Shown one piece after another: positions 6,269 to 54,624 of a DNA stretch of 64,000 nt. Position numbers and translations under genes: made by a program. The notes under the pieces are model-generated. The model did no database searches, was not told where the DNA came from, and saw only the letters and a list, made by a program, of their open reading frames with translations. The stretch spans positions 1,602-65,601 of the forward strand of contig CAYYLO010000004.1 in NCBI GenBank assembly GCA_964472675.1, written 5' to 3'. How positions within the stretch are numbered: position 1 is the first letter of the stretch; each line of letters opens with the position of its first letter. This stretch comes from an uncultured Gammaproteobacteria bacterium (lineage in GTDB: Bacteria; Patescibacteriota; Microgenomatia; UBA8517; UBA10165).

Positions 6269-6596
6269 GGCTTCCTCCTGTTAAGGTTCTTTGGGATTTT
6301 TTACAATAAAAAATCCCGTCTTTGAAAACAACCTTTTTACAGTTGCCTCCAAGGACGGGACTTCTCTCCCGCGGTACCACCTTGATTGTACGTTCATATA
6401 AACTGAACGTACCTCTTGTTCCGGCTCCGTATATTTTCGACACCGGCTTTTGTATTTTACGGTTCAAATTCCGTAAAGCATTTTTGCTTTCAGCTCCCAG
6501 ATCGCGACTCTGGTAAAAACGCCTTTGCTAACTTGTTACCCATAGTATAGCAGGGATTTTTATTTTGTCAACTACTAGTATTCATAGGTAAAAATT

Positions 6597-6634
6597 GAGG
6601 CTGGGTGCGTGGGGTAAAACACCCAGCCTCGGGA
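6597..6634 (-). terminator. Rho-independent terminator downstream of the MFS gene
   Basis: On the minus strand the hairpin gaggctgggtg...cacccagcctc is followed by aattttt. Confidence 0.6.
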
Positions 6635-6648
6635 AGCTTTGAGCGAAA

Positions 6649-7965: not shown

Positions 7966-8160
7966 ATATTTAGGGGATTAAAGCACGCGAAATGCCTCCA
8001 TTTGAGGTTGGATAGGGGCGTCGACGCCCATTCCAAATTTGGAGGTAATAAGCTCTTTGTGTTTTCGACAATATTCCATACAACTGAAGCTTATCATACT
8101 ACAGGTTAATGTGTCAAGAGTGGTTTGACATGATCTTACAATATGAGCCATAGTGAGTAG

Positions 8161-37695: not shown

Positions 37696-40152
37696 ATGGC
37701 TAATGAATTTGACATAAAACAAGCTAAAATCCACACCCTTCCGGTTGTAGCGTTACGTGGTTCTGTTGTTTTTCCTCGTACAGAAAGTATCCTCACCTTC
37801 GGCCGTCCCAAGACAAAAGCTGCTGTTCAGGCAGCATACTCAGGAGACAGATTGTTGGCTATTTTTACTCAAAAAGATGCCAGGATTTCAGATCCTGTAC
37901 CGGATGATTTATACGAAGTAGGAAGTTTGGTCGAAGTTCAACAGATTATGCCGGCTGACGAAGAAATTCATGTACTGGTTATTGGTAAAGCTCGCATTGG
38001 AATTTCAGAAGTCGTGGCGCAAAATCCATTCGCCGTATACAAGGTCCATGTTTTTGAAGAAAACCTGACGACAACAGCAGAAGAAGAAGCCAGAGCACGG
38101 CATTTGGTTGGCTTATTTGAGAAAGCGATTCGTTTGGGAAAGCCTGCCGACGTTCAAACTGTAATGCGACTTTTATCTTCAAAAATTGAAGTGGCAGAGC
38201 TGGTTGACCAAATTGCCTACCTTTTAGACGTCAAAACTCCGCAAAAGCAGGAAATTTTGGAAACTCTCGACCTGTCTACAAGATTGAAAAAAGTTGAAGA
38301 TTTGTTGGGTCGGGAAGTGGGTATCCTGGAACTTGAGCGTACAATTTCTTCTAAAACGCAAAAAAGATTTGAAGAGCAGATGAAGAAAGCGATGCTCAAG
38401 GAGCATCAAAAAACAATTCAACAAGAACTGCGGGGCTTGGGAGAAGATGATGGGGGAGACGAAGAAATTGACGAATTGCGTCGCAAGATAAAAGAAGTTG
38501 GAATGCCGCGCGATGTGCGCAAAAAGGCAGAAAAAGAGCTAAAACGTTTGGTTCAAATGTCTCCTAATCATCCGGAGAGCGGGTATGTCAGGAATTATTT
38601 GGACTGGTTGGTTGAAATGCCCTGGAGTATAAAGTCTTCAAATGACATTTCTTTAAAACAGGCAGGTGCAATTTTGGATAATGACCATTATGCCTTGAAA
38701 AAAACTAAAGAGCGTATTTTAGAATTTTTGGCTGTAATGAAGCTTAAAAGTGAATCGCAAAAAGCTCATGATTCAACTTTGAATACTGAAGAAGAGGCGG
38801 AAACTATGGAAGGTACGCCGACAATACTTTGCTTTATTGGGCCTCCAGGGGTAGGTAAAACTTCAATCGGTCGTTCAATTGCTCATGCTTTGGGCCGGAA
38901 ATTTGTACGTGTTTCGTTGGGAGGAGTGCGCGACGAGGCGGAAATCAGAGGTCACAGGAGAACTTATGTGGGGGCACTGCCTGGAAGAATTATCCAGGGT
39001 ATAAAAAATGCCGGGACAAAAAACCCTGTATTTATGCTGGACGAGATTGACAAACTTGGCAATGACTTTCGGGGAGACCCGTCTTCTGCTCTGTTGGAAG
39101 TCTTGGATCCTGAGCAAAACAGGGAATTCTCAGATCACTATTTGGAAGTACCCTTCGATCTTTCCGAGGTTATGTTTATTTGCACTGGGAATGTTTTGGA
39201 TACTATTCCTCCAGCCTTGAGAGACAGAATGGAGATCATCCGTTTCGTGGGATATACAGAAGACGAAAAGTACAATATTGCCAAAGATTATCTCTGGCCA
39301 AAACAACTTAAAAATCACAGTCTTCCTGAAGATATACAAATTTTTTCTACAGCTTTGCGGGAGATTATAAATAGGTACACGCGCGAAGCAGGCGTTCGGA
39401 ATTTGGAAAGGAATTTAGCGACGATAGCAAGAAAACTTGCCAGAGACATTGCGGAAGGTAAAAAAGGTGTTAAACATGTGGGGAAAGTAGATTTGCACAA
39501 GCTCTTGGGGCCAGCACAGTTTACGTCACTTTTAGCTGAGAAAAAAGATGAAGTCGGAATTTCGACCGGGTTGGCTGTTACTCCCGTAGGGGGAGAAATA
39601 ATTTTTGTGGAGACTGCTCTCATGCCGGGCAAGGGGAAGCTTACTTTAACTGGCCAGCTGGGAGATGTTATGCGCGAATCTGCAATAGCGGCTTTCTCCT
39701 ATGCAAGAAGTCATTCGTCTGATTTGGGCATAAGCGACAAAGTTTCCAAAGTGACTGATGTTCATATTCATGTTCCCGAAGGCGCAGTACCGAAAGACGG
39801 TCCGTCTGCTGGTGTGGCTATGGCAACATCTTTAATTTCAGCTTTAACTGGCACAAAGACCAGGCGAGATGTGGCCATGACTGGAGAGATAACTTTGCGC
39901 GGGAGGGTTATGGAAATTGGTGGGGTTAAAGATAAGGTAATCGCAGCTCATCGAGCCGGGATCAAGACTGTTGTTTTGCCTAAAGATAATCAAAAAGATA
40001 TGGATGACGTACCAGAGAAAGTTAAACGAGATATCAAATTTATTTTCGCTTCGCACCTTGACCAGGTGCTAGAAGTGGCAATCCCCGCTTTTAACCATAA
40101 ACCACATCGTACCCCTTCTGTCCCTATCCCCTCAAGCTACATAGCAGGCTGA
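37696..40152 (+). CDS. lon: ATP-dependent Lon protease
   Basis: LON N-domain, Walker A GPPGVGKTS, and the protease S-K dyad region KDGPSAGVAMATSLISALTG. Confidence 0.95.
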   Translation: MANEFDIKQAKIHTLPVVALRGSVVFPRTESILTFGRPKTKAAVQAAYSGDRLLAIFTQKDARISDPVPDDLYEVGSLVEVQQIMPADEEIHVLVIGKARIGISEVVAQNPFAVYKVHVFEENLTTTAEEEARARHLVGLFEKAIRLGKPADVQTVMRLLSSKIEVAELVDQIAYLLDVKTPQKQEILETLDLSTRLKKVEDLLGREVGILELERTISSKTQKRFEEQMKKAMLKEHQKTIQQELRGLGEDDGGDEEIDELRRKIKEVGMPRDVRKKAEKELKRLVQMSPNHPESGYVRNYLDWLVEMPWSIKSSNDISLKQAGAILDNDHYALKKTKERILEFLAVMKLKSESQKAHDSTLNTEEEAETMEGTPTILCFIGPPGVGKTSIGRSIAHALGRKFVRVSLGGVRDEAEIRGHRRTYVGALPGRIIQGIKNAGTKNPVFMLDEIDKLGNDFRGDPSSALLEVLDPEQNREFSDHYLEVPFDLSEVMFICTGNVLDTIPPALRDRMEIIRFVGYTEDEKYNIAKDYLWPKQLKNHSLPEDIQIFSTALREIINRYTREAGVRNLERNLATIARKLARDIAEGKKGVKHVGKVDLHKLLGPAQFTSLLAEKKDEVGISTGLAVTPVGGEIIFVETALMPGKGKLTLTGQLGDVMRESAIAAFSYARSHSSDLGISDKVSKVTDVHIHVPEGAVPKDGPSAGVAMATSLISALTGTKTRRDVAMTGEITLRGRVMEIGGVKDKVIAAHRAGIKTVVLPKDNQKDMDDVPEKVKRDIKFIFASHLDQVLEVAIPAFNHKPHRTPSVPIPSSYIAG

Positions 40153-40174
40153 TACAACTCGTTTCAAAACTCGG
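40153..40174. repeat. Left copy of a 22-nt motif TACAACtCGTTTCAAAACTCGg, immediately after the lon stop
   Basis: It matches 52457-52478 (ATACAACcCGTTTCAAAACTCG) with 1 mismatch. Weaker similarity continues for ~20 more nt (gcacatttgact vs tcaatttactt). Confidence 0.7.
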
Positions 40175-40376
40175 CAGGCACATTTGACTGTGCCGCGATA
40201 AGAAACAAGTATTCTCCTAATTGGCCAACAGTTCTTACAAAAGCCTTATTAATTGTAGTGATGTTATCTCACAAAAGAATTTTATTTTGATATACAGCAA
40301 TCTTTTAAAAAGTAATTTAAAGATTTTTGAAAAATCCTTAAAGCCTTTTAAAAGCTTGCCCTAAAACCAAAAAAAC

Positions 40377-43300
40377 ATGGACAAGCTAAAACGGATATTA
40401 TCCCTAACGACACTTTTGCTGGTGCTTAGTAACAGTATACTTCCATATTACTCTTCAGCAAATGTGGTTTTTGCACAAGAAGTAAATGCAACACCTGCCG
40501 CTACTTCGGAAGTGGACGAACCACTTCAGACTTCTTCTGCGCCCACACCAACACCAGAACCAACACCTTCTGAAATTCTTACACTAACACCAACACCAAC
40601 TCCTACTCCTGAAACTGAACTTACTCCAATGCCGGCTGAACAAGAAACAACTGACAACGCTCTACCTGCACCAACCCCTACACCTACACTTTCTGTTGAA
40701 CAGACTGTTATTTCCACACCAATCCCAGTGCCTGTGCCTGCACCTGCACCTGTGCTATTAGCTTGGAAGAATATTGATTCAGCAACAGTTGAAACTATGG
40801 ATAATGTAGAAGCTAACAAAGATTACACTGCTCCTCAAAATGATAAGGTGAAAGTTAACTTTACCAAACTTCCTGAGATTGCTGGAAAACTAACTATTAA
40901 AGAAATTAAATTGTCTTCTAGCCAGGTGGAACAGTTGAAAGCTGTTTCAGACACAGCTTATGAAATTACTTCCACTATGGCTAACGGAACATTTAACTAT
41001 GACTTAACCCTGCCTTTATCAGAGCAAGCCAAAGGCAAGAAGCTGGAAGTAAAAACAGCGGAATCGCAAGAAAAGCTGGACAAAGCACAAACTGTTAATG
41101 AGCCAAAAGAGGAAAAAGCGGATACAATTGCTATTAAAGATTTAAACCATTTTACAGTCTTTGTTATTACCACCCCAGATCCTGACACTACTCAAAAAGT
41201 CTTGATTAATGAAGTAGTTCCAAATCCTCTGAATGGGGCAGAATGGATTGAGCTTTTTAATAACAGCACTCAAGCTACAAACTTAGGAGTGGGAAGCGGT
41301 TGGACTATCAGAAATTCTACTGGCGATACCAGGTCTTTAAGCTCCTTAGGCACTGTTACTGCTTCCGGCAGAGTAGTTTTTGAGGCTCCTGCCAATTGGT
41401 TAAGCAATACTGCCCCTGAAACTATTACTCTATCAAATGAGTTAGGAACACCGGTTGATACAGTGACCATATCTTTAACCTCCCCGGGTTTTGTCATTGA
41501 TCATTACCCGCTGGCTAACGAATCAGTTGGAAGAAAAACAGACGGAGTTGCAGAATGGGTCATCTTTACTATTCCCACCAGAGGCACAGCTAATGTTTTG
41601 CCTAAAACGACAACTAGCCTCTCCGAAGCAGGTCCAATTGCCCCTGAAGGTGGTCTTATGGCAGGTTTCCCATCCTGGTACAAAGACTCTAATGGTTTGG
41701 CGCTTGATTTAATGGAAGCAGCTGATGGTTTTGGTATCTCTGATCCAGTTGATCCATCTAATCCATTTTCACAAACTATTGGCTTTAATGCTGAAGGATT
41801 TTGGTGGTCAGCTGAGGCTTCTATTGACCGCCCAGTAGGCACACGCACCATACTGGTGTTGGCAGTTGAGGCTGCCTTTGCCGGAGAAGCAGCAGTTGAT
41901 GGGGAACAATCAGTGCAAAACAGGCTCAGATACAGGATTGATGGACTGGTACCTGGTGAAACCTATACCATTACCCACCCTTTTGGCACTGTGAAAGAAG
42001 TTGCTGAAGATGATGGGACAATCAATGTCACTGATGACATTGGATGCTTTGCCGGAGGAGGAGTGACCTGCAATCAAACAGCTTCCCCTAACTTTGCCAC
42101 AGCTTTGAACGGTCAAGTAGGGCCATTCTTAACCTGGACCACCTTTAATACTAACCCAGCTTTAACTGACCCTCAACTTACTAATCCTGCCAACCCAAAC
42201 AGAAGATATGTTGGTAATCCCACTATTGAACATGAGGTAACAGGCAGCCCAACAGGCAATAACTTCTTCAGAGTCCAAGGCAAGGATGTGGGTGGCCCTG
42301 GAGTTAACCAAATCCAAACCAACTTATTTGCAGTTTCAGGAAGGCTGGCAGATACAAATGCTCCTGTGATTACCCTTTTTGGCAGTAATCCTGTAAATGT
42401 CAATCAAAATGCTTCTTATATTGATGCTGGAGCAAGTGCTTTAGATGATCTGGGCGGTAACTTAACCGGCAATATTGAAGTTAGCGGTTTGCCTGTTGAC
42501 ACTTCTACCATTGGTGTAAAAACAGTCACTTATACTGTAACTGACAGCGCAGGCCGTACATCCCAAGCAACCAGAACTGTTAATGTAGTTAATCTGGTAG
42601 CGGTAGGAGAAGCAGATACTGTTGCTCCCTTAATCACTATACTTGGGGCAAATCCTGCTTTTGTCACTGTTGGCACACCATATACTGATGTTGGAGCAAC
42701 AGCTTTAGATAATGTTGACGGAGATATTACCGGAAGTATTATCACCACGGGTTTGCCGGTTATTACATCAACAGTTGGCACATTTACTGTTACTTATAAT
42801 GTGGCGGATAGCGCAGGTAATGCAGCAATTCTAGCAAAAAGGACTGTTAATGTGGTAGCAGATACTACTGCTCCTGTAATTACTATGCTGGGGTCAAATC
42901 CTGTCAATATCTTTACAGGCGCTGCTTACTCAGATGCCGGAGCCACAGCCTTGGATGATGTTGACGGAGATATTACCGGGAGTATTGTTACTACGGGTTT
43001 GCCTGTCGATACGTCAAAAGCAGCTACTTTTACCATTACTTATGAAGTAGTTGATTCAGCTGGCAATCCTGCCATTGCAAAAAGAACAGTTAAGGTAGCA
43101 GAAACTTTGCCCGCCAGCCTCTCCGAAGCAGGTCCAATTGCCCCTGAAGGTGGTCTTATGGCAGGTTTCCCATCCTGGTACAAAGACTCTAATGGTTTGG
43201 CGCTTGATTTAATGGAAGCAGCTGATGGTTTTGGTATCTCTGATCCAGTTGATCCATCTAATCCATTTTCACAAACTATTGGCTTTAATGCTGAAGGATT

Positions 43301-45812
43301 TTGGTGGTCAGCTGAGGCTTCTATTGACCGCCCAGTAGGCACACGCACCATACTGGTGTTGGCAGTTGAGGCTGCCTTTGCCGGAGAAGCAGCAGTTGAT
43401 GGGGAACAATCAGTGCAAAACAGGCTCAGATACAGGATTGATGGACTGGTACCTGGTGAAACCTATACCATTACCCACCCTTTTGGCACTGTGAAAGAAG
43501 TTGCTGAAGATGATGGGACAATCAATGTCACTGATGACATTGGATGCTTTGCCGGAGGAGGAGTGACCTGCAATCAAACAGCTTCCCCTAACTTTGCCAC
43601 AGCTTTGAACGGTCAAGTAGGGCCATTCTTAACCTGGACCACCTTTAATACTAACCCAGCTTTAACTGACCCTCAACTTACTAATCCTGCCAACCCAAAC
43701 AGAAGATATGTTGGTAATCCCACTATTGAACATGAGGTAACAGGCAGCCCAACAGGCAATAACTTCTTCAGAGTCCAAGGCAAGGATGTGGGTGGCCCTG
43801 GAGTTAACCAAATCCAAACCAACTTATTTGCAGTTTCAGGAAGGCTGGCAGATACAAATGCTCCTGTGATTACCCTAAATGGTTCTAACCCGGTTGAAGT
43901 GACCCAAAATGAAGCTTATGCTGACAGCGGCGCAACCGCAATTGATAATTTTGATGGTAATCTGACAGCCAGTATTGTAACGACTGGTTTGCCGGTTAAT
44001 ACCTCTGTAATAGGCGTAAAAACCATTACCTATACTGTTTCTGACAGGGCCGGCAATACTGCTATTGCTCAAAGAACTATTAATGTAGTGGCAGCTACCC
44101 CTCCAACTCCAGAACCTCCAGTTCCTCCTGTCCCAGCAGACGGTGCAGGGCAAGCAGATACAACATCTTTAGATGGGTTTTCCTCAACTACTAAGGGGTC
44201 TTATAAAACAGGAGACTTGATAGATATCACTGCTAATTTTGATAAGACTTTAGATGCAGAAAGCACCATGACAGTTGAACTAAGTAATGGTGTCCAAGTT
44301 ATCTTAAGCCAAGTTTCCGGATCAAAGTTAACAGGTACATATATTGTTGGGACAAATATTTCAGAAAACTCTGATAATTTAACTGTAGCAAAAATAATCT
44401 CCAGTAGTATTCAAGCTTCAGACACATTGCCTTCAATAAACTTAAGCAGCATTGTTGTTAATGTCAAAACTTCTGCAGAAGCTGCTGATAAGTCAGGCCA
44501 GGCTGATGTAAATAGTTTGTTGGAACTGGACAGTGAGACTGTTTTAGACATGGGTAGTAATTTAAGTACAGCCACAATAGAAGGCGCAATCACTATTGCT
44601 GGTTTGTCAAAACTGCTAAGTATATTTTCTAATGGTGATCTGGTGAATCAAAATCTAACCTTACCTCAAATTATTGGTGATAAATTGGTTATGGTAAGTA
44701 AGGCAGTCAGGTTAAACTCCGGCCCTAGTGGTTCATTGATTACCTTATCCAATAAAAACCTGTCAACTGTTAAGTTGTCTATAGTAAGTGGAACAACAGT
44801 ATTAGGAGAAAGTAGCTGGAACGGCAAGGTCAATCCTCCTTCTATTGTTACAAATACTGGTATTGCGCCTAGCGGGTTCAAACTCGGTGATTTTGCAATT
44901 GAGGTAGGTTATCCGGAAGGAATCCTGCTTTTTGACCAATCAGTAACCATCCTTTTATCAGGCGTCAATGGCCCTGTCGGATATAAACCCTCAGGCTCTG
45001 ACACTTGGGTTAAGATGGCAAATTGCTTGGGCACTTTTGACAGTCCGCTTAAGCCAGTTTTCCCTGGGGAATGCGCAATTTCTAATGGGGCAGACACCAA
45101 AATCTATACATATCATTTAACTTCTTTTGCCAATTTACAGGAAATTCCCCCTGTTTCCATCCCAACCCCAACACCAGCTATTGTAGTAGCAAGCTCATCT
45201 AATACAGACACTAACACTAATACAACTTCATCCAATTCTAATCTCTCTAATTCTTCCTCAAACAATACTTCTAACAATCCTTCCACTCCTGTTTGTACTG
45301 ATTCCAAGCCAGGCAGTGCTCCTATCTTGCTTTCTGCCGTCACCAGCGGTCCTAACCAGGTGACCTTAACCTGGTCAAAAGCATCTGATCCTGTTTCCCA
45401 TTATTCCATAGTTTATGGCTTGTCGGCAGGCAATCCTATTTATGGAAATACTAATGTTGGGGGGAAGGATACTACCTCATATGCAGTTGGCGGTTTGTCT
45501 GGCGGAACAACTTATTACTTCAAAGTCAGGGCAGGCAATGGTTGTAATGGCAGTGAATATTCAAATGAACTGTCTGCCGCACCGGACGGAGGAACAATAA
45601 ATAGTCCTGCAACAGGATTTACCCGGGGGTTATTGGGTGCTCAGACTGAAGAAGAAACGAAGACTAGCGAGCCTGGAGTCTTAGGTGTCAATGTAAATGG
45701 GCTTGCTTCAAAGAGCAAAGGAACCTGGGCAATACAGCTAATGTTGGCAGCTTTAGCAGCTTTGGGTGTTGGTTATTTTAAGTTCTTTTACAGGAAAAAA
45801 TTAAATGGGTAG
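40377..45812 (+). CDS. Giant secreted multidomain surface protein (1811 aa). Domain order: signal peptide, PT-rich linker, lamin-tail domain, a duplicated unknown domain, Ig-like (DUF5011-type) repeats, an SNT-rich linker, a two-Cys FN3-like module, and a C-terminal TM anchor.
   Basis: - Signal peptide: MDKLKRILSLTTLLLVLS.
- Lamin-tail motif: VLINEVVPNPLNGAEWIELFNNS...GW.
- Ig-like repeats: APVITLxGSNPV...Y.DAGATA.D..DG(D/N)(I/L)TG.I...GLPV.TS..G...VTY.V.DSAGN.
- C-terminal TM helix AIQLMLAALAALGVGYF followed by KFFYRKK. Confidence 0.85.
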   Translation: MDKLKRILSLTTLLLVLSNSILPYYSSANVVFAQEVNATPAATSEVDEPLQTSSAPTPTPEPTPSEILTLTPTPTPTPETELTPMPAEQETTDNALPAPTPTPTLSVEQTVISTPIPVPVPAPAPVLLAWKNIDSATVETMDNVEANKDYTAPQNDKVKVNFTKLPEIAGKLTIKEIKLSSSQVEQLKAVSDTAYEITSTMANGTFNYDLTLPLSEQAKGKKLEVKTAESQEKLDKAQTVNEPKEEKADTIAIKDLNHFTVFVITTPDPDTTQKVLINEVVPNPLNGAEWIELFNNSTQATNLGVGSGWTIRNSTGDTRSLSSLGTVTASGRVVFEAPANWLSNTAPETITLSNELGTPVDTVTISLTSPGFVIDHYPLANESVGRKTDGVAEWVIFTIPTRGTANVLPKTTTSLSEAGPIAPEGGLMAGFPSWYKDSNGLALDLMEAADGFGISDPVDPSNPFSQTIGFNAEGFWWSAEASIDRPVGTRTILVLAVEAAFAGEAAVDGEQSVQNRLRYRIDGLVPGETYTITHPFGTVKEVAEDDGTINVTDDIGCFAGGGVTCNQTASPNFATALNGQVGPFLTWTTFNTNPALTDPQLTNPANPNRRYVGNPTIEHEVTGSPTGNNFFRVQGKDVGGPGVNQIQTNLFAVSGRLADTNAPVITLFGSNPVNVNQNASYIDAGASALDDLGGNLTGNIEVSGLPVDTSTIGVKTVTYTVTDSAGRTSQATRTVNVVNLVAVGEADTVAPLITILGANPAFVTVGTPYTDVGATALDNVDGDITGSIITTGLPVITSTVGTFTVTYNVADSAGNAAILAKRTVNVVADTTAPVITMLGSNPVNIFTGAAYSDAGATALDDVDGDITGSIVTTGLPVDTSKAATFTITYEVVDSAGNPAIAKRTVKVAETLPASLSEAGPIAPEGGLMAGFPSWYKDSNGLALDLMEAADGFGISDPVDPSNPFSQTIGFNAEGFWWSAEASIDRPVGTRTILVLAVEAAFAGEAAVDGEQSVQNRLRYRIDGLVPGETYTITHPFGTVKEVAEDDGTINVTDDIGCFAGGGVTCNQTASPNFATALNGQVGPFLTWTTFNTNPALTDPQLTNPANPNRRYVGNPTIEHEVTGSPTGNNFFRVQGKDVGGPGVNQIQTNLFAVSGRLADTNAPVITLNGSNPVEVTQNEAYADSGATAIDNFDGNLTASIVTTGLPVNTSVIGVKTITYTVSDRAGNTAIAQRTINVVAATPPTPEPPVPPVPADGAGQADTTSLDGFSSTTKGSYKTGDLIDITANFDKTLDAESTMTVELSNGVQVILSQVSGSKLTGTYIVGTNISENSDNLTVAKIISSSIQASDTLPSINLSSIVVNVKTSAEAADKSGQADVNSLLELDSETVLDMGSNLSTATIEGAITIAGLSKLLSIFSNGDLVNQNLTLPQIIGDKLVMVSKAVRLNSGPSGSLITLSNKNLSTVKLSIVSGTTVLGESSWNGKVNPPSIVTNTGIAPSGFKLGDFAIEVGYPEGILLFDQSVTILLSGVNGPVGYKPSGSDTWVKMANCLGTFDSPLKPVFPGECAISNGADTKIYTYHLTSFANLQEIPPVSIPTPTPAIVVASSSNTDTNTNTTSSNSNLSNSSSNNTSNNPSTPVCTDSKPGSAPILLSAVTSGPNQVTLTWSKASDPVSHYSIVYGLSAGNPIYGNTNVGGKDTTSYAVGGLSGGTTYYFKVRAGNGCNGSEYSNELSAAPDGGTINSPATGFTRGLLGAQTEEETKTSEPGVLGVNVNGLASKSKGTWAIQLMLAALAALGVGYFKFFYRKKLNG
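41616..43876. repeat. Perfect 761-nt direct repeat (41616-42376 and 43116-43876) with a 1500-nt period inside giant gene 1
   Basis: Line-by-line comparison shows 100% identity over 761 nt. It encodes a duplicated ~250-aa domain (LSEAGPIAPEGG...NAPVITL). The antisense ORF pairs 41504-41851/43040-43351 and 41910-42116/43410-43616 are artefacts of this repeat. Confidence 0.9.
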
Positions 45813-48800
45813 AAAAGTCTTATCAGCATTTTTGATTTTAGTTGTTGTTTTTTCGAATGGATTTTTAACTTTGGCACAGATTGCTTTAGCTGCTCCAACT
45901 GGTGAAAATAAAACGTTTTATTTTCGAAACCAAAGTGCGCAGTTGCCCAGTAGCCATGTTTTAAGTACCACTGCTCCAACTTCAGGAAATTCTCAAAACA
46001 CTTCCATAACCAGCACTGACTCTCCATCATTCCGGCATTTTCATCCGGGAATAACCAGTTTTCAACATATTTTTGCTACTGAACCAGCTCATACCTTGCC
46101 AGTTGACTTGGCCTCATGGATTTCTGATGTGCCTCTTGATGGTACTTTCCAGGCAGGCAGCTGGAAATTTATAGTACACAAAAACGACAATATCAAAGGG
46201 GAAGTCTCAGTCCCCCATTTTAATGTTTACAAAAGTCCCAGCAATACCAGTTTGGATCAGGCAACTTTTCTTTTTGATGTGGAAGGGCCTGACTGGTGGA
46301 CATCAAGCGATGAGCAGCTTAATTTTTCTACACCCTTACTTAGCCAATTTGAATTTAATAATGCATATTTGGTAGTGCAGCTTTTTGACCAATGCAAATC
46401 AGGTTGTAACGGTGGGAAAATTATGACAGTTTTTGAAGATGGCACGTCTGCTGCTACCCAAACCAGGATAGAAACACCATTATTTGTCCCAGCTGGCAGC
46501 AATGAACCTGTGCCCCCGCCTTCTGCCCCAGCTCCAGAACCTTCTGCACCTCAACCTCCAACCCCCCCTGCAGATATTACTGCCCCTATAATCACTATTT
46601 TGGGAGATAGTCCTGTAACAGTCTTTTTAGGCTCTACTTATATAGATGCTGGTGCTACCGCCATTGATAATATTGACGGTGCTATTTCTGTTGAGACAAC
46701 CAATGCAGTGAATACTGCTGTTTTAGGAGGATATTCTGTAATTTACAAGGCTACTGATAGCGCAGGTAATACTAGTGTTCCTGCTATCAGGACTGTGAAT
46801 GTGGTAGCACCACCAGCCCCAGTGCTTCCACCTCCAGCTCCTATTGTACCTCCTTTACCTCCCTTAGATACCATTGCTCCTGTAATAACTATGCTTGGCT
46901 CATCTCCTTTAGATGTGACAATTGGCTCTGTATACAACGATGCCGGAGCTACAGCTTTGGATAATATAGATGGTGATCTGGCTGCTAAGATTAGTGCTTC
47001 CGGATTACCTATTAATACTGCTAGTGCAGGAACATTTACCATTACTTATAATGTGGCGGATAGCGCAGGCAATACTGCCACACCTGTTACTAGAATTGTG
47101 AATGTGATAGCAGCCCCAGAAGAACCAGCTGCCCCAGCTCCAGAGCCTCCTCCACCTCCAGTCCAACCTTCTGCTCCTAAAAACTCCCCTCCAGTGGTGG
47201 AACCTATCCCTTCTCAAACCATTACGGTTGGGACTCCAGTCTCCTTTAAAGTAATAGCTACTGACACGGATGGGGACGCCTTAACTTACTCTTTAGGCCC
47301 TAATGCTCCATTGGGTGCGACAATTGATCCTAAGACAGGCGCTTTTTTTTGGCTACCGCAAGTTGTAGGCACAACAAATTTTGATATTCTGGTTTCTGAT
47401 GGAGTTAATACTCCGGTTACAACTGGCCACTTGATTGAAAACCGGAACTTAGGAGTTGATGGCATTTTAGGCACAGCAGACGATATTTTCATTGGTGGCA
47501 TGGCTACTTGGGGGATGGTCAAGGCTCAAGCGCGGGACTTTTTAGGCATATTGTTAGATGATTTAGATGTGCTCGACTTGCCACTTTTGGCAACTGACGC
47601 GTATGGCAATTTTATCAAAGGCCCGAATGGTTTTCCACAGCTGGTGATTGATGGCGGTTTACTAGAAGGTAATCCAGCCTCCCCTGTTGATGCCTCAAAA
47701 GCAGTCCGGACCCACCATCCATTTATAGTAGATATCAGCCACAATGCTAATCCTGTTAACTCGCGGGGTGTGCCTCTTAAAGCTGATTCGGATAATGTGA
47801 TTGGACTATCTGAACCAGGCACATATGACAATGAGTTGTTGGATGCGCATTTTATGGCCGGAGACGGTCGTGTTAATGAAAATATTGGCTTAACAGCAGT
47901 CCACCATATTTTTCATTCTGAGCACAACAGGTTGGTGGAGTACGCTAAAAATGTGATACTGGATACAGGTGATTTAGCTTTTTTAAGCCAATGGTTAGTA
48001 GCAGGTAGTGCACCAGATACTTTTCCTCAAACACCTCAAGAAATTACTGCTTTGTCTTGGAATGGGGAACGGTTGTTTCAGGTGGCTAAATTTGGTACGG
48101 AAATGCAATACCAACATTTGGTGTTTGAGGAATTTGCCCGCAAAGTTTCCCCGCAAGTCAATATATTTTCAGGCTATGACAATAGCATTGATCCGGCCAT
48201 TATGGCTGAATTTGCCCACACAGTCTATCGTTTTGGCCACAGTTTGTTAACTGACACCGTTGCGCGTACTAATGAGGATGGCACCACCAATGACATTGGT
48301 TTAATACAGGCCTTCTTAAACCCATTAGAGTTTGTAGCAAGCGGGGATACGCCCATTAAGGCTGCAGGCGCTATTGTTTCAGGCATGGTTAACCAGGTTG
48401 GCAATGAGATTGACGAATTTGTCACAGAATCTTTGCGAAGTAACTTGTTAGGTCTGCCTTTGGATTTGGCTACTATTAATTTAGCCCGGGGACGGGATAC
48501 TGGTGTTCCTCCGCTGAACTCAGCCAGAAAGCAATTTTTTATGGCGACTGGTGGAGATTCGTCTTTAAAGCCATATACCAGCTGGGTAGATTTTGGTTTA
48601 AATATTAAACACCCCCTCTCCCTAATAAATTTTATTGCAGCATATGGCACACATCCGACTGTTTTAAATGCAGCCAGCTTACAAGAAAAACGTGCGGCGG
48701 CTGCTTTGTTAGTTGATGGAGGAGAAGGCGCGCCAGAAGATAGAGTGGATTTCCTAAACAGCACTGGTAATTGGGTTAGTACTGGTTTAGATACTGTTGA

Positions 48801-51800
48801 CTTTTGGATCGGTGGTTTAGCGGAAAAACAAATGCCTTTTGGGGGGCTTTTAGGCCCTACCTTTAATTTTGTGTTTGAGACCCAAATGGAAAAACTGCAA
48901 GATGGAGATAGATTTTATTACCTATTCAGAAATGCCGGCTTAAACTTTTTAACTTCTCTTGAGCAAAACTCCTTTGCAGAATTGGTGATGAGAAACACTG
49001 AAGGCGTCAAGCACACGCCACATGATATTTTTTCGCATCCGGCTTTTACTATTGAAGCTGCCGATATTGATCCTTTGAACCCGGCAACGTTTCCGCCTGA
49101 CACAATTATTATGCCTGATGGCACTATCCGCTACACAGGGGTGGAGCATATTGTGATGGGAGGTACAGCGGGTAATGATAAACTGCATTCATCTGAAGGC
49201 GATGATACTCTTTGGGGAGATGAGGGTAATGATAGGCTGGAAGGTGGAGCAGGCAATGATGCAATTTTGGGCGGTGCAGGTGATGATATTTTAACTGATA
49301 TTTTTGGCGATGATAATATTAAAGGCGGCGAAGGCAATGATGTGATCAACGCAGGAGTTGGCATTGATCTGATTTTAGGAGGGGATGGCCAGGATTTTGT
49401 GGTGGCAGGCAGGGATTCAAAAGAGACTTTTGGAGGGGCTGGTAATGATTTTATTATAGCAGGAGACGGAGCTGATACAGTGTTTGGCAATGAGGGGGAT
49501 GATTGGATTGAAGGCGGTGACCAGGCGGATTTATTGCAGGGTGATAATGGCGATCCTTTCCAAAGCTCACCCACCATTGGCAATGACGTGATCATAGGCG
49601 GCGGGGGCAATGATGATTATGACTCAGAATCCGGCGATGATATTATGCTGGCCGATCCGGGCATTGAACGGAACGAAGGCATGCTTGGTTTTGACTGGGT
49701 GATATACAAAAATGATCCGCAGCCTGCCAATGCAGATATGTTTATTACAGGCTTGTTGCCGCCAACAGTAAATGATTTGCGTGACCGGTTTGATTTGGTT
49801 GAAGGCTTGTCCGGAGGCAGCCTTGACGATATTTTAAGGGGCGATAACCGCACCAGTGTTGGTTTTTTGGACCATGCTTTAAATAACCCTGCCCAAATTG
49901 CTTTGATTAACGGGTTACAAAATTTGCTGGGGGATGGGGTGAGCTCATTTTCAGGAGGAAATATCATATTGGGCGGAGCGGGTAGTGACGTAATTGAGGG
50001 TCGGGGCGGTGATGACCTGATTGATGGTGATGCCTGGCTGAATGTGCGTTTAAGTGTGGGGGATATTAGTGCAGACAGTATGACAGAACTTCAAACTGCC
50101 ATGTTTGAAGGCAAAATAAATCCCGGACAAATAAAAATTATCCGCGAGATATTAACCTCCCAAACAGAAGATGACATTGATACAGCAGTTTTTTCAGGTA
50201 ATCTGGCTGATTACACCATCAGTCAGCCAGATGCTCTAGGTAGGATTACAGTAACAGATAATAGGAGAGAAGATGGAGGAGGAGGCAGAACTAGTGATGG
50301 TACAGATACCCTTCGCAACATTGAACGCTTGCAGTTTGCTGACCAGACTATAGATTTAAATAAGTCAAACAAAGTATCAGCTCCCGCCCTAGTAGATAAG
50401 ATCTCTGAGCCAGGTGTTAGTAATTTGAGATCAGGAGTAGGTTTGACCTTGATTAGGTCTGATCTGCAGTTTATTTTGGATCAGATTAAAATTGCCGAAG
50501 CTCATGCTCAAGGTGCGTTCTTGTCCGGCCTAATCCCCAAAGACGTTTTACCTTGGGGTTTGCGGACAGTTGATGGGACTTTCAATAACATTGTGTCCAA
50601 TCAATCTGAGTTTGGGGCGGCAGACAGGGTATTCCCCCGCCTGACCACACCAGTTTTTAGAAATGCGGAAAATGCAACTTTTGATTTGGATGGGCCAGGC
50701 CCTTTAACTTTAGGCCAGCCAACCTCTTATGCTCAAAATAACGGTTTTGTGTTTGACTCGCAACCCCGCTTGATCAGCAATTTAATTGTTGATCAAACCT
50801 TGGGCAATCCTGCTGCTCAAGCCGCCAGTGCGTTTAGCTTACCTGACCCACAAACTAATAGTTTATTTATCCCAAACATAGCTCCTGATATGGGATTGTC
50901 TGCATCTTTTAATTCCTGGTTTACCTTGTTTGGACAGTTTTTTGATCATGGGTTGGATTTAGTCAACAAAGGCGGTAGCGGTACAGTATTTATCCCGCTT
51001 GCTACTGATGACCCGCTTTTTAACCCTGCCAGCCCGTCTAATTTCATGGTTTTAACAAGAGCAACAAACCAACCTGGCCCGGATGGCGTGTTAGGCACAT
51101 TGGATGATATTCATGAACACACAAACCAAACATCTCCTTTTATTGACCAAAATCAAACTTACACCTCACATCCTTCACATCAGGTATTCCTCCGTTCATT
51201 TAATTTTAGACCGGCTAACAGTTTGTCAGTTTTGGCAAATATAACAGTTGCTCCAAAGATTTTCTCTGTTTTTGGACAAGGCAAGTTTACTTCCACAAAT
51301 GGGCAAACTATTACACCTAAAGTTGTTTCCCAGGGAATCTCTGTTGTTTCAGTGGAAGACGGCGGGGGAATACATTCTGTGACTGTACCGGATGGAACAG
51401 AGATTACCAAAAGCAATGGCAAAGACATCGATATCACTGCCTTAACAGCAGCGGTGCCTGCTATAGATTCCTTAACAGGAATGAATAAAGGAGTGGTGGT
51501 TAATGGCAAGTTGCAATGGGGGATTCCCAACCAGGGGTTGTTGTTTAGTAACCCAATTTCACTGGATATATTTGTTGGTACTGATTTAAATGGTCAGACT
51601 TTGGATGTGCTGCGTTCTGAAACTGGTACTGGTAATTGGACCAATGAGGGAATTGTGGCCCCTGCAACTTGTTTAGTGGCAAATGGCATGTGTACATTTC
51701 AGGCCACAAAAGCCTCAGTTTATATAGCTGCTCAAACTGTAGCTAGTGCTGGGGGAACAATTGGCAATGCTTCCCCAACAGATAACAATAATAGTAATAA

Positions 51801-52440
51801 TACACCCACGAACACATCTAATACAGCCACTAACACTAATACAATTTCATCCAGTTCTAATTCCTTTAACTCTTCCTCAAGTAACGGTTCCTCCACCCCT
51901 TCTAACGCTTCTGCTCCTGTTTGTACTGATTCCAAGCCAGGTAGTGCTCCTAAGTTACTTTCTGCCATAGTTACCGGTCCCAACCAGGTAACTTTAAGTT
52001 GGTCTAAGGCCCAAAATCCTGCAACCTATTACTTAGTAGCTTATGGAACTTCTTCTGAGAATCTACAATTTGGTAATCCTAACGTGGGTGGAGCTGATAC
52101 TACTTCATATGTGGTTAATGGCTTGTCCGGCGGAACGGCTTATTACTTTAAGGTTAGAGCTGGGAACAACTGCATGCCGGGAGAATTTTCCAATGAGTTG
52201 CCTGCAACAGTTGACGGAAGCGTAATTAGGCAGCCCGCCTCAGGGTTTACTGAAGGTGTGTTGGGAGTTAAAAAGGAAACACTCGACAACCCAACAATCG
52301 ACAAACCTGCTCTTGCTCCTACAACTTCCGAAAGTCGAAAGAACAGGATTTTCCAACTAACTTTAGCAGCGATGGTCTTATTAGCTATATCCTATGGTCT
52401 TTTTTATCGCCTTGCTAAAAGAGTAAGCCGACGGTTGTAA
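45805..52440 (+). CDS. Giant secreted multidomain protein (2211 aa). Domain order: signal peptide, Ig-like (DUF5011-type) x2, cadherin-like/He_PIG domain, animal-heme-peroxidase (peroxidase-cyclooxygenase superfamily) domain, RTX hemolysin-type Ca-binding repeats, an N-terminal-type peroxidase segment, an SNT-rich linker, a two-Cys FN3-like module, and a TM anchor. The 8-nt overlap with giant gene 1 suggests translational coupling.
   Basis: - Signal peptide: MGRKVLSAFLILVVVFS.
- Ig-like repeats: APIITILGDSPV, APVITMLGSSPL.
- Cadherin-like: PSQTITVGTPVSFKVIATDTDGDALTYSL.
- Peroxidase motifs: GDGRVNENIGLTAVHHIFHSEHNRLV (Arg/Glu heme-link motif), RFGHSLL (proximal His), LARGRDTGVP, VDFWIGGLAE, GDRFYY.
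- RTX nonapeptides: GGAGNDAILGGAGDDIL, GGEGNDVINAG, GGAGNDFIIAGDGADTVFGNEGDDWIEGG.
- After the RTX block: TVDGTFNN and FGQFFDHGLD (distal His), SPFIDQNQTYTS (Ca loop).
- C-terminus: TM helix plus basic tail. Confidence 0.85.
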   Translation: MGRKVLSAFLILVVVFSNGFLTLAQIALAAPTGENKTFYFRNQSAQLPSSHVLSTTAPTSGNSQNTSITSTDSPSFRHFHPGITSFQHIFATEPAHTLPVDLASWISDVPLDGTFQAGSWKFIVHKNDNIKGEVSVPHFNVYKSPSNTSLDQATFLFDVEGPDWWTSSDEQLNFSTPLLSQFEFNNAYLVVQLFDQCKSGCNGGKIMTVFEDGTSAATQTRIETPLFVPAGSNEPVPPPSAPAPEPSAPQPPTPPADITAPIITILGDSPVTVFLGSTYIDAGATAIDNIDGAISVETTNAVNTAVLGGYSVIYKATDSAGNTSVPAIRTVNVVAPPAPVLPPPAPIVPPLPPLDTIAPVITMLGSSPLDVTIGSVYNDAGATALDNIDGDLAAKISASGLPINTASAGTFTITYNVADSAGNTATPVTRIVNVIAAPEEPAAPAPEPPPPPVQPSAPKNSPPVVEPIPSQTITVGTPVSFKVIATDTDGDALTYSLGPNAPLGATIDPKTGAFFWLPQVVGTTNFDILVSDGVNTPVTTGHLIENRNLGVDGILGTADDIFIGGMATWGMVKAQARDFLGILLDDLDVLDLPLLATDAYGNFIKGPNGFPQLVIDGGLLEGNPASPVDASKAVRTHHPFIVDISHNANPVNSRGVPLKADSDNVIGLSEPGTYDNELLDAHFMAGDGRVNENIGLTAVHHIFHSEHNRLVEYAKNVILDTGDLAFLSQWLVAGSAPDTFPQTPQEITALSWNGERLFQVAKFGTEMQYQHLVFEEFARKVSPQVNIFSGYDNSIDPAIMAEFAHTVYRFGHSLLTDTVARTNEDGTTNDIGLIQAFLNPLEFVASGDTPIKAAGAIVSGMVNQVGNEIDEFVTESLRSNLLGLPLDLATINLARGRDTGVPPLNSARKQFFMATGGDSSLKPYTSWVDFGLNIKHPLSLINFIAAYGTHPTVLNAASLQEKRAAAALLVDGGEGAPEDRVDFLNSTGNWVSTGLDTVDFWIGGLAEKQMPFGGLLGPTFNFVFETQMEKLQDGDRFYYLFRNAGLNFLTSLEQNSFAELVMRNTEGVKHTPHDIFSHPAFTIEAADIDPLNPATFPPDTIIMPDGTIRYTGVEHIVMGGTAGNDKLHSSEGDDTLWGDEGNDRLEGGAGNDAILGGAGDDILTDIFGDDNIKGGEGNDVINAGVGIDLILGGDGQDFVVAGRDSKETFGGAGNDFIIAGDGADTVFGNEGDDWIEGGDQADLLQGDNGDPFQSSPTIGNDVIIGGGGNDDYDSESGDDIMLADPGIERNEGMLGFDWVIYKNDPQPANADMFITGLLPPTVNDLRDRFDLVEGLSGGSLDDILRGDNRTSVGFLDHALNNPAQIALINGLQNLLGDGVSSFSGGNIILGGAGSDVIEGRGGDDLIDGDAWLNVRLSVGDISADSMTELQTAMFEGKINPGQIKIIREILTSQTEDDIDTAVFSGNLADYTISQPDALGRITVTDNRREDGGGGRTSDGTDTLRNIERLQFADQTIDLNKSNKVSAPALVDKISEPGVSNLRSGVGLTLIRSDLQFILDQIKIAEAHAQGAFLSGLIPKDVLPWGLRTVDGTFNNIVSNQSEFGAADRVFPRLTTPVFRNAENATFDLDGPGPLTLGQPTSYAQNNGFVFDSQPRLISNLIVDQTLGNPAAQAASAFSLPDPQTNSLFIPNIAPDMGLSASFNSWFTLFGQFFDHGLDLVNKGGSGTVFIPLATDDPLFNPASPSNFMVLTRATNQPGPDGVLGTLDDIHEHTNQTSPFIDQNQTYTSHPSHQVFLRSFNFRPANSLSVLANITVAPKIFSVFGQGKFTSTNGQTITPKVVSQGISVVSVEDGGGIHSVTVPDGTEITKSNGKDIDITALTAAVPAIDSLTGMNKGVVVNGKLQWGIPNQGLLFSNPISLDIFVGTDLNGQTLDVLRSETGTGNWTNEGIVAPATCLVANGMCTFQATKASVYIAAQTVASAGGTIGNASPTDNNNSNNTPTNTSNTATNTNTISSSSNSFNSSSSNGSSTPSNASAPVCTDSKPGSAPKLLSAIVTGPNQVTLSWSKAQNPATYYLVAYGTSSENLQFGNPNVGGADTTSYVVNGLSGGTAYYFKVRAGNNCMPGEFSNELPATVDGSVIRQPASGFTEGVLGVKKETLDNPTIDKPALAPTTSESRKNRIFQLTLAAMVLLAISYGLFYRLAKRVSRRL

Positions 52441-52456
52441 GCCTACTAATAAGAAT

Positions 52457-52478
52457 ATACAACCCGTTTCAAAACTCG
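52457..52478. repeat. Right copy of the 22-nt motif ATACAACcCGTTTCAAAACTCG, 17 nt after the giant gene 2 stop
   Basis: See the left copy at 40153-40174. Confidence 0.7.
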
Positions 52479-53551
52479 TGCGTCAATTTACTTTTCAAAA
52501 AGGGGTTGTTAGAATAGTTTTAATGGAAGCTCCATCAGCAGTATCGGATAGACCTATACTTTACAAACCAACTGATACGGAACTTGCCAGGGAATCGGTA
52601 GAGGAAGCAGGAATAAGATATTTTGCTGCACTGGCAAGCTTGGCTAGAACTCCAGAAGAGCTGCGCGCATTAGTTCGTCTTCATGCGCAAAAAGCAGCAG
52701 AAGCTGGCGGTCCGGTTTTGGGTGAAGTTTTAACTGGATTCTCTGAAGAATTATCAAGTGCTTCTCAACCTGTATTAGAAGAACCGGAAGGCACTCCAAC
52801 ACTAGAAAAAAGAACTGTGCAAACGCCTATGGGGGAACTTACTCTTTATCCTCAAAGAAAAGAAGCAGCCTCCCCTCTTCTTCCAAAAGAAAAGGGGGCA
52901 GTTAGGTTGCCTGATGTAGTATTTGAAATACTAGAAACTCTTGCGAAAGATCCGCGTGTCGTAGTTAACTATGAAGACTTAATTAAAAATGTCTGGAAAT
53001 ATGAAAGCTATAATAAGAAAACAGACCTGTCAATGGTAAGAACCCGAGTATATGTTCTTCGCCAATTATTAGGAGATAGCGGAGAAGGTGTGGCTTCTGC
53101 AAGAAAATTCAAATTTATTCACACCTTTGAAGAAGGTATTTCTTTAACAGATCATCTTACTGTTGACCAAATTATCCGCCTAACCCCACAGGAAAGAAAA
53201 GATTTACATATTGCAAGCGCTACTATTCCTGGAAGAAATAGACAGCCAAAACAAGTGTTTCTTGATGCCGCACGGGGAATTGCAATTGTGCCAGATTCGG
53301 CAACAAACCCATATAAATATTTGTCAACGCTGGAAGCCGATGTCCTGGAAGCATTGATGCGTCATCCACAATCTATACTTCCCAAAGATATGTTTATTAA
53401 TATTATAGAAAAACACGGATATATCTCAAAGACAGACGATAAAACATCTGCTTTAAAAGCACTTGTGTATCGTTTAAGACAAAAGCTGGAAGAGGATCTT
53501 CCAATTTATACTATTGATAATGGCCATACGCTTACAGAAAGAATGCATTAA
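52478..53551 (+). CDS. Tandem OmpR/PhoB-type winged-helix (trans_reg_C) DNA-binding protein with no receiver domain. ATG at 52523 is the likely real start; the GTG at 52478 overlaps the repeat motif.
   Basis: There are two copies of the trans_reg_C pattern: VRLPDVVFEILETLAKDPRVVVNYEDLIKNVWKYESYNKKTDLSMVRTRVYVLRQLL and ...LSTLEADVLEALMRHPQSILPKDMFINIIEKHGYISKTDDKTSALKALVYRLRQKLEE. No D-box/receiver motifs are present. Confidence 0.55.
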   Translation: MRQFTFQKGVVRIVLMEAPSAVSDRPILYKPTDTELARESVEEAGIRYFAALASLARTPEELRALVRLHAQKAAEAGGPVLGEVLTGFSEELSSASQPVLEEPEGTPTLEKRTVQTPMGELTLYPQRKEAASPLLPKEKGAVRLPDVVFEILETLAKDPRVVVNYEDLIKNVWKYESYNKKTDLSMVRTRVYVLRQLLGDSGEGVASARKFKFIHTFEEGISLTDHLTVDQIIRLTPQERKDLHIASATIPGRNRQPKQVFLDAARGIAIVPDSATNPYKYLSTLEADVLEALMRHPQSILPKDMFINIIEKHGYISKTDDKTSALKALVYRLRQKLEEDLPIYTIDNGHTLTERMH

Positions 53552-53599
53552 ACCCCAACATCTTTTTAGGTGAGCCGCCTTCCCCGTGTTTGGAGCCGT

Positions 53600-54376
53600 T
53601 TAATGTAACTTTACCCAACTATTACCGGAATTAACTTCCATAAGCTCAGGTCCCGCGCCACGGTAAGCACAAGGATTTTGGTCTCTTTCTTCTTTACTAA
53701 TTATCACTTGCTTTTTTGAAGCAACTCCTTTTTGCTGAAACTGCGCAAAAACTTCGTCACTCATATGATTGAATACAGAATCCAAATCTGCAAACGGTGA
53801 CAACCAATTATCAATTTTCTTGGGTGGCAGCCCGATCTTGCCATAGATCGCGTCAAATGAGTAATAACCGTCCAGGAATCCCGCAAAACCAACCAACTCA
53901 CCAGCTTTAACCCTATCCCCAGTTTTTAACCCGTCTTTAACCTTAATATGCTCAACACTAAAACTCCACATTCCAACTGGCGGGATATTGGCAAACATGC
54001 GCCGGGGAGAAATCCATAATTCCTGTTCATTATCATTTAATGAAAAAATCAATGTAATATAACCATCGAAAGGAGCGTAGATCTCTACCACTTTATCTGC
54101 TCCACGGTTTTCTTCCTTTTCCCACAAATAATGCTTCATATTTCTTTTGCTTTCTTTTTCGTTTTGGGGTACGACGACATGTCCGGTGCAACTTCTGAAC
54201 TTGGAGATTTTTTCAATCTTATCTAAGTTGACAAAATTTGCCGTTATCTGCGGGGGAGGTGTATTCCGGTTGGAAAAGATAGAGAAAAGCGATGCTCCTG
54301 CGAATATCAGGATCAAAACTCCGACACCGATTAGTATTTTTAAAATGAAAGACAGGCGAGCAAACCCCTTTTGCAT
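53600..54376 (-). CDS. Hypothetical membrane-anchored protein (a degenerate M23/LytM-like beta-barrel is possible)
   Basis: An N-terminal TM helix and a GDRVKAGELVGFAGF segment reminiscent of the M23 C-terminal strand, but with no HxH metal site. Confidence 0.4.
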   Translation of the reverse strand: MQKGFARLSFILKILIGVGVLILIFAGASLFSIFSNRNTPPPQITANFVNLDKIEKISKFRSCTGHVVVPQNEKESKRNMKHYLWEKEENRGADKVVEIYAPFDGYITLIFSLNDNEQELWISPRRMFANIPPVGMWSFSVEHIKVKDGLKTGDRVKAGELVGFAGFLDGYYSFDAIYGKIGLPPKKIDNWLSPFADLDSVFNHMSDEVFAQFQQKGVASKKQVIISKEERDQNPCAYRGAGPELMEVNSGNSWVKLH

Positions 54377-54624
54377 CTTGCATTTATTGTGGCAGGTTTC
54401 AGTAGTATGGTCAATTTTTTGGTGACCTTACTGACTGAGGAATGGAACACCTTATGAAGAATTTGCCAGAAGGACAAAATTGAGAGACTGAATGGCCGCT
54501 GGCTTCTAGTCAGTATCGAATGTATGAATTCTCTAATCTCAGCTTGGAGAAATGGTTGGGAACAAAATATACATAGAATTTGTTGCAGTGAAAATGCTAT
54601 GATTACCTTAATATAAGTCCTTCG

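Follow-up and report, generated by a model that had tools for sequence, protein, structure and literature searches.

Probable recent gene conversion between two copies of an undescribed domain in a giant surface protein of a candidate phyla radiation bacterium

Introduction

Bacterial surface proteins with long repeats of high DNA identity within one gene are known as Periscope Proteins, among them SasG/Aap, Rib/alpha-C, Sgo_0707 (SHIRT), Esp and CdrA (Whelan et al. 2021, PMC8201768). Recombination is known to homogenize repeats within a gene both in these proteins (PMC8201768) and in cagY (PMC2194252). Here we analyze a gene for an 1811-residue surface protein that contains the same 254-residue domain twice, encoded by segments that are identical at each of 761 nucleotides (nt). 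The gene lies on a 64,000-nt stretch of contig CAYYLO010000004.1 (assembly GCA_964472675.1), which we call the window. The host is a bacterium of the candidate phyla radiation (CPR), Candidatus Blackburnbacteria: the Lon protease encoded directly upstream matches that of metagenome-assembled genomes (MAGs) of this group at 89% to 78% identity. The next gene downstream encodes an animal haem peroxidase with RTX repeats, the combination known from MopA, a Mn(II)-oxidizing enzyme (PMC6247904).

An earlier reading of the window, made from its letters alone, offered four causes for the perfect repeat: a very recent duplication, gene conversion, an actively recombining contingency locus able to vary protein length, or an error of assembly. 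Comparison with relatives favors the second of these. The second copy of the domain is very probably an old one that was recently and completely converted by the first, not a newly duplicated unit.

Results

An exact repeat with a sharp edge inside continuing homology

The repeat is real in the assembly and lies where it was first reported: nt 41616-42376 and 43116-43876 form a maximal exact match at an offset of 1500 nt (761/761 nt, 0 mismatches). The offset corresponds to 500 codons, in frame, and makes residues 414-667 identical to residues 914-1167. Upstream of nt 41616 the flanks lack homology (the linker of the lamin tail domain, LTD, on one side and the end of the third immunoglobulin-like repeat, Ig3, on the other), and sequences compared at this offset therefore agree only at the random level of 25-33%. 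Downstream of nt 42376, identity falls abruptly to 60-72% where the homologous, diverged repeats Ig1 and Ig4 start, and it reaches 60% within 60 nt although the Ig1/Ig4 homology runs on. The diverged Ig-like repeats that the sequence-only reading placed after each copy are present as described.

In relatives of the same architecture, copy 1 and copy 2 share 70-78% nt identity, so that 761/761 lies far above chance or the usual similarity of paralogues. Third codon positions are 99.6-100% identical between the window copies, as against ~50-62% in those relatives. Strong purifying selection that holds two old copies identical is therefore hardly credible as an explanation, since selection at the protein level cannot account for identity at every synonymous site. 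The Ig repeats lying between the two copies are 62-72% identical to one another in nt, and no other long exact repeat was found in the window. An Rfam search of the window returned two tRNAs only, none inside the giant gene; an exact 35-mer from the repeat had no match in metagenome contigs, and no 17-mer of the repeat was common to two or more relatives.

The two-unit architecture is old

Relatives were collected by protein searches and locus retrieval. The layout domain–Ig1–Ig2–Ig3–domain–Ig4 recurs in at least eight of them, each with two domain copies and a spacer of three Ig repeats (P0195/L082, P0196/L088, P0051/L084, P0197/L085, P0067, P0198, L087 and L091). When all Ig repeats were placed in one tree, Ig1, Ig3 and Ig4 grouped according to position rather than genome, and those of the window are positional orthologues of their counterparts down to 53-62% protein identity. 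Ig4 has as orthologues both the Ig repeat after copy 2 in relatives and the sole Ig repeat of a single-unit orthologue, P0052. In a Daviesbacteria-like pair, the two copy 2s group together (98% bootstrap), as do the two copy 1s (56%; 92.5% for the central segment), so the duplication is older than that split. Taken together, the orthology of the Ig repeats by position and the pairing of the Daviesbacteria-like copies imply that the two-unit architecture long predates the window's lineage. An old duplication would have produced the layout common to Blackburnbacteria- and Daviesbacteria-like lineages.

Copy 2 resembles copy 1 of relatives

The closest two-unit relative, L087, has 91.5% nt identity to the window over window positions 44495-46841, in the 3' part of the gene. 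At the protein level, the two match at 89% in the LTD, 90% in Ig3 and 93% in the region of the fibronectin type III domain (fn3) and transmembrane (TM) anchor. Copy 1 of the domain is 90% identical between them, copy 2 only ~58%, and the two copies of L087 are 47-89% identical to each other depending on the segment.

We built neighbor-joining trees by short segment and used only those splits that were re-counted as bipartitions. For residues 200-250, copy 2 of L087, L091, L088 and P0195 formed a separate clade (83% bootstrap), whereas copy 2 of the window fell among the copy 1s (together with P0052 and copy 1 of L087, 94%). A distinct 'copy-2 type' C-terminal segment is thus seen in four relatives and not in the window. 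The tree for residues 81-160 was incongruent with that for residues 200-250: here copy 2 of P0195 joined its own copy 1 (84.5%), and every Blackburn-type copy except copy 2 of L087 fell into one clade (100%). A diagnostic-site test for the donor copy, which used P0195 and P0196 alone, had yielded two informative columns only and was replaced by these segment trees.

The similarity between copies 1 and 2 is graded across loci. It is 100% over 761 nt in the window, 93% over 221 nt in L091 (copy-1 tail against copy 2), 77.9% in L082 with exact runs of 82, 44 and 36 nt, 71% in L084 and 70% in L085, the last two with third positions ~50% identical. The window copies are 83-92% identical to copy 1 of relatives and 58-77% identical to copy 2. 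With copy 2 of L087 diverged and the copy-2-type C-terminal segment absent from the window, it follows that copy 2 of the window was overwritten by copy 1.

Several signs of gene conversion therefore coincide at this locus. Paralogues within the window are closer than orthologues despite a duplication older than the split; the segment trees are incongruent and similarity is mosaic; and synonymous sites are identical up to a sharp tract edge that lies inside continuing homology. The relatives form a series from the nearly unconverted L087 through the partly converted L082, L088 and L091 to the fully converted window. With 0/761 differences, the copies have diverged by at most ~0.4% (95% upper bound), and divergence from copy 1 of L087 is ~17% in nt. 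As a rough estimate, the conversion would date to the most recent few percent of the interval that has passed since the split from L087.

We infer that homologous recombination between the domain-coding segments put copy-1 sequence over copy 2 in a non-reciprocal gene conversion. The tract would have covered all of the homology on its 5' side and ended, on its 3' side, 7 codons into the Ig repeat, so recently that 761 nt carry no substitution. The same process would have acted earlier, partially and independently, in related lineages. Once identical, the copies could serve unequal recombination, by which a 1500-nt unit could be lost or gained.

A non-orthologous member of the domain family, P0054 (1464 residues), has two domain copies with 89% protein identity that include long stretches without any difference, and may be another case of intragenic homogenization.

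A second assembly from the same population

MAG GCA_016187265.1 comes from the same population as the window. Its contig JACPKD010000023.1 (2709 nt) corresponds to window positions 39048-41756, its end lying 141 nt inside copy 1. A further contig, JACPKD010000021.1, corresponds to positions 42248-55777; it begins with the last 129 nt of copy 1 and spans Ig1-3, the whole of copy 2 and Ig4, with 0 mismatches and one 15-nt gap in copy 2. This in-frame indel is the sole difference between the window and the MAG over 13.5 kb. That JACPKD010000023.1 ends at the site of the indel suggests that the two copies differ by these 15 nt (SNPFS) in that sample.

Two nearly identical copies would be expected to break an assembly in this pattern, and the MAG confirms the junctions from copy 1 to Ig1 and from Ig3 through copy 2 to Ig4. 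Because an independent MAG shows both junctions as well as breaks at the repeat, gross misassembly is unlikely. Contigs L090, L091 and L094 (JGI contigs; another related species) begin inside the domain, so repeat-induced assembly breaks recur in this gene family.

Unit number differs between species

One unit is present in L083/L096, which come from a different species (81% nt identity to the window), and two are present in the window, L081/L095, L087, L088, L082, L084, L085 and L091. The single-unit orthologue (P0052/P0222) consists of an LTD, a copy-1-type domain and then the Ig4 orthologue. It was assembled independently from two data sets, with L083 and L096 being 99.9% identical. Its simplest origin would be the loss of one unit through crossover, either between the two copies or at the domain/Ig junction, which is conserved. 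Unit number was seen to vary only between species and not within one, the same-species comparison consisting of one MAG.

The surroundings of the single-unit gene also differ. ParE/PhdYeFM and MazE-type toxin-antitoxin genes and a Fic gene (L083 151-670, L096 535-1340) lie just upstream of the GAF histidine kinase gene that precedes it. The window locus lacks these toxin-antitoxin and Fic genes and has Lon upstream instead.

Organization of the giant gene and its neighborhood

The translated open reading frame is identical to P0221 on a 66,276-nt NCBI contig. From the N-terminus, the protein consists of a predicted signal peptide, a Pro/Thr-rich linker, a conserved N-terminal module, the LTD, domain copy 1, Ig1-3, domain copy 2, Ig4, an unassigned stretch of ~400 residues, fn3 and a predicted C-terminal TM anchor (Table 1). 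Three of the four Ig-like repeats thus separate the two domain copies, and the fourth comes after copy 2. The LTD and Ig-like domains named by the sequence-only reading were both recovered by Pfam, the latter as four stretches of PF16403 (Bact_surface_Ig-like, DUF5011; 242 bits against a cut-off of 27), which are the Ig repeats and not the duplicated domain. The N-terminal module (nt 40752-41186; KVKVNFTKLP...LTIKEIKL...YDLTLPL) and the ~400 residues that precede fn3 (nt 44112-45296) are kept in relatives and had no Pfam match at E<=10.

Table 1. Features of the giant surface-protein gene and the adjoining peroxidase gene, in window coordinates.
Feature	Coordinates	Strand	Basis or remark
Giant surface-protein gene	40377..45812	+	1811 residues
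Predicted signal peptide, residues 1-33 (...NVVFA/QE)	40377..40475	+	By eye from translation: basic n-region, hydrophobic core, AxA-like site
Lamin tail domain (LTD), residues 271-365	41187..41471	+	Pfam PF00932, 40.9 bits vs gathering cut-off 34.3
Repeat copy 1: 254-residue domain (residues 414-667) and first 7 codons of Ig1; putative conversion donor	41616..42376	+	Exact match; clusters with copy 1 of relatives
15 nt TCTAATCCATTTTCA (SNPFS) in copy 1	41757..41771	+	JACPKD010000023.1 stops directly before them
Ig-like repeat 1 (PF16403 type), orthologue of Ig1 of relatives	42357..42611	+	Pfam, Ig tree
Ig-like repeat 2	42621..42872	+	Pfam, Ig tree
Ig-like repeat 3, orthologue of Ig3 of relatives	42867..43121	+	Pfam, Ig tree
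Repeat copy 2 (residues 914-1167): putative conversion recipient, ancestral copy-2-type sequence apparently replaced in full	43116..43876	+	Exact match, segment trees
15 nt TCTAATCCATTTTCA (SNPFS) in copy 2, missing from copy 2 of GCA_016187265.1	43257..43271	+	Contig alignment
Ig-like repeat 4, HYR-scoring as well	43857..44111	+	Pfam, Ig tree
Fibronectin type III domain (fn3), residues 1647-1733	45315..45575	+	Pfam PF00041, 52.5 bits
Predicted C-terminal TM anchor WAIQLMLAALAALGVGYFKFF, then YRKK	45726..45788	+	By eye from translation
Neighbor gene, 2211-residue protein	45805..52440	+	Overlaps the stop codon of the giant gene by 8 nt

The translation predicts a protein that is exposed at the surface and anchored to the cell, with its N-terminal region distal. 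The 1811-residue protein has stalk domains and a predicted anchor, and Pfam and profile searches detected no known adhesive domain in it. Its architecture makes a role as an adhesin plausible; the genomic context of the domain, described below, points to secreted oxidases and peroxidases rather than to such a role.

The neighboring 2211-residue protein combines an animal haem peroxidase domain (An_peroxidase, 210 bits) with RTX/HemolysinCabind repeats, Ig-like repeats, fn3 and a TM tail, and its gene is syntenic in L081, L082 (P0207, 2483 residues) and L087. The overlap of the two genes suggests that they are co-translated. The two giant genes also share a C-terminal stalk/anchor cassette, since window positions 45196-45538 and 51815-52166, which encode their Ser/Asn/Thr-rich linker and fn3, are paralogous at 72-81% nt identity. 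Further Blackburnbacteria loci were found by scanning genome contigs for Lon, and none of them reached a domain-bearing orthologue. Elsewhere in the window, positions 6001-8000 have a GC content of 0.50, compared with ~0.42 outside this interval, and no Rfam match.

A large domain family found near secreted oxidoreductases

The duplicated domain was said from the outset to be of unknown family, and the searches agree. Neither as a single sequence nor as a profile did it match Pfam-A, NCBIfam or the PDB, and no significant sequence, profile or fold match linked it to any family described there. Its own family comprises 1693 cluster representatives (50% identity) at E<=1e-3 and 242 at E<=1e-30. 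Residues P19, D24, E60, F62, E85, F101, R103, R105, Y117, H121, P122, G124, D141, L172, G200, G210, P212, N216, F238 and G242 are conserved across 276 copies. The domain is often the first module after the signal peptide in proteins of 300-430 residues, and its partners include SLH, PKD, ASH-like and Fn3_assoc domains. Two to three copies are present in 83 of the 194 members in hand, with within-protein identities of 33-89% and none at 100%.

A secreted oxidoreductase lies within one to three genes of the domain gene in 7 of 11 independent contexts, the types being multicopper oxidases, haem peroxidases and di-haem peroxidases. These contexts are the Blackburn-type loci (An_peroxidase–RTX), L084 (a 1999-residue neighbor with Cu-oxidase_3), Arthrobacter cavernae (a multicopper oxidase as the next gene), Poribacteria (four CCP_MauG genes and a multicopper oxidase), L093 (a domain–CHRD fusion followed by a CHRD gene and then a multicopper oxidase), a plasmid of Arthrobacter sp. 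FW305-BF8 (three flanking multicopper oxidase genes with Nramp and a metal regulator) and a Skermanella plasmid (multicopper oxidase and SCO directly upstream). The other four are L100, L085, Indioceanicola (a plasmid record with none within 6 kb) and L092, which is too short to judge. A tblastn search of plasmids returned only three records with the domain. At L097, L098, L093, L101, L102 and L084 the domain adjoins multicopper oxidase, CCP_MauG, CHRD or SCO genes, and the domain genes that adjoin oxidases span Actinomycetota, Poribacteria, Alphaproteobacteria and CPR.

Genes of the multicopper oxidase or peroxidase type are few in any one genome, and judged from such general knowledge of gene numbers, 7 of 11 looks far above chance. 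As a putative role, the domain would be exposed and would bind a ligand or metal, acting together with secreted oxidases and peroxidases. We put forward only tentatively, as a doubtful proposition, that it is the founding example of an extracellular family that partners secreted multicopper oxidases, haem peroxidases and di-haem peroxidases, and that appears in CPR as two homogenized copies on a giant protein co-transcribed with a MopA-like anchored peroxidase.

Discussion

The perfect identity of the two copies could have arisen in other ways. A very recent tandem duplication of a 1500-nt unit (the domain and three Ig repeats) in a formerly single-unit gene fits the period of exactly 1500 nt, the perfect identity and the existence of a single-unit gene in a related species. 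Such a duplication should have left the whole 1500 nt identical, however, and only 761 nt are, with Ig1 and Ig4 at 60-72%. Positional orthology of Ig1, Ig3 and Ig4 down to 53-62% protein identity, together with the strongly diverged copy 2 of L087, makes this proposal of the sequence-only reading very improbable. An assembly artefact, in which copy-1 sequence was set at the copy-2 position or units were collapsed or expanded, is a little less remote and still quite unlikely. In its favor, the repeat exceeds the length of short reads, and the second MAG from this population is fragmented at the locus and has a 15-nt indel in copy 2 that is not seen in the window. Yet JACPKD010000021.1 independently joins the copy-1 tail, Ig1-3, a full copy-1-like copy 2 and Ig4 without a mismatch, and exactly two units are found in eight relatives. 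Moreover, a copy 2 as diverged as that of L087 or L082 would assemble cleanly, without contig breaks, so the true copies must be nearly identical. Collapse or expansion in its gross form is thus unlikely, while base-perfect identity is, given the indel, only provisional. A few masked single-nucleotide polymorphisms, the indel itself or more than two units are what an assembly effect could possibly still involve.

A further alternative concerns why the copies are identical. The gene could be a selected device for varying length or dosage, of the Periscope-protein type, whose identity is kept as frequent gain or loss of the 1500-nt unit pays; gene conversion as the molecular route is compatible with this. 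The difference between one unit in L083/L096 and two elsewhere, the recurrence of conversion in several lineages and the contig breaks inside the domain in L090, L091 and L094, which suggest near-identical stretches, are all in keeping with such a device. On the other hand, variation of unit number within a species was not seen, the copies are only two and non-adjacent, and the stalk Ig repeats have diverged. Homogenization is also not the rule in the family, given the 33-89% within-protein identity of 83 multi-copy proteins, an argument tempered by the fact that short-read assemblies would under-report identical copies. We regard a selected device as unlikely, though less so than either duplication or artefact. 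The actively recombining contingency locus first envisaged is at most a possibility; the sole difference in unit number that was found lies between species. Of the options first offered, gene conversion is the one that the diverged copy 2 of L087, the segment trees and the age of the architecture support.

Some observations weigh against recent and complete conversion of copy 2 by copy 1. The trees are neighbor-joining trees on short segments, with moderate support (56-84%) at some nodes. The Blackburn-type copy 2s are not cleanly orthologous in their central part, so the direction of transfer is drawn chiefly from L087 and from the 50 residues at the C-terminal end. With a repeat of 761 nt, longer than short reads, both assemblies could have merged a few true differences, and the 15-nt indel between the MAGs is at least one difference within the population. 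Finally, the contigs alone leave the number of units at two or more.

If conversion did occur as proposed, the perfect repeat records a recent event of this kind within a single gene of an uncultivated CPR bacterium, and the intermediate stages in relatives would let ongoing homologous recombination be seen shaping the surface proteins of organisms with reduced genomes. Short-read MAGs break systematically here, as did GCA_016187265.1, from which the interior of copy 1 is missing. For such genes, both the number of copies and their identity are therefore under-reported.

Beyond the repeat itself, the most promising outcome is the unnamed domain family associated with oxidases. It is large and confidently foldable, and its oxidase/peroxidase neighborhood offers a testable functional lead that may bear on extracellular metal oxidation or on oxidative matrix chemistry. 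If the domain is indeed a partner of these enzymes, its role could be to bind or present metal or substrate, or to be the target of oxidative cross-linking, and the giant protein and the peroxidase would together form an oxidative apparatus at the surface of a cell with minimal metabolism.

Among described systems, the neighboring gene resembles MopA (PMC6247904) in joining An_peroxidase (210 bits) to HemolysinCabind repeats, a likeness in domain composition, and differs in its 2211 residues, its additional Ig-like repeats and fn3, and its TM anchor. The giant protein itself shares with fibrillar adhesins (Monzon et al. 2021, PMC8286594; PMC9210967) a signal peptide, a cell anchor and a long stalk built from Ig-like (PF16403/DUF5011), HYR-like and fn3 modules. 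Unlike them, it has no recognized adhesive domain; its candidate head domain is undescribed, is present twice and has relatives that adjoin oxidase genes.

With Periscope Proteins it has in common a cell-anchored giant surface protein with Ig-like/fn3 stalk modules, long repeats of very high DNA identity within one gene, where intragenic recombination is expected, and a relative that differs by one whole unit. In contrast to their tandem arrays, the window has only two identical elements, which are non-adjacent. The identical element is a globular, non-stalk domain of 254 residues, and it is the intervening stalk Ig repeats that have diverged (60-72% nt). In addition, the length difference here is one between species, the anchor is a C-terminal TM helix and the host belongs to the CPR. 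The concerted evolution of cagY (PMC2194252) is similar in that paralogous segments within a gene are homogenized with their products in frame, leaving mosaic similarity and incongruent trees. It differs from the present case, in which the stepwise history can be read across lineages and a single 761-nt tract spans one whole domain. The mechanism is thus a known one; what is new is its action on two large, non-adjacent, non-stalk copies within a diverged stalk, in a CPR host and with its successive steps visible among relatives.

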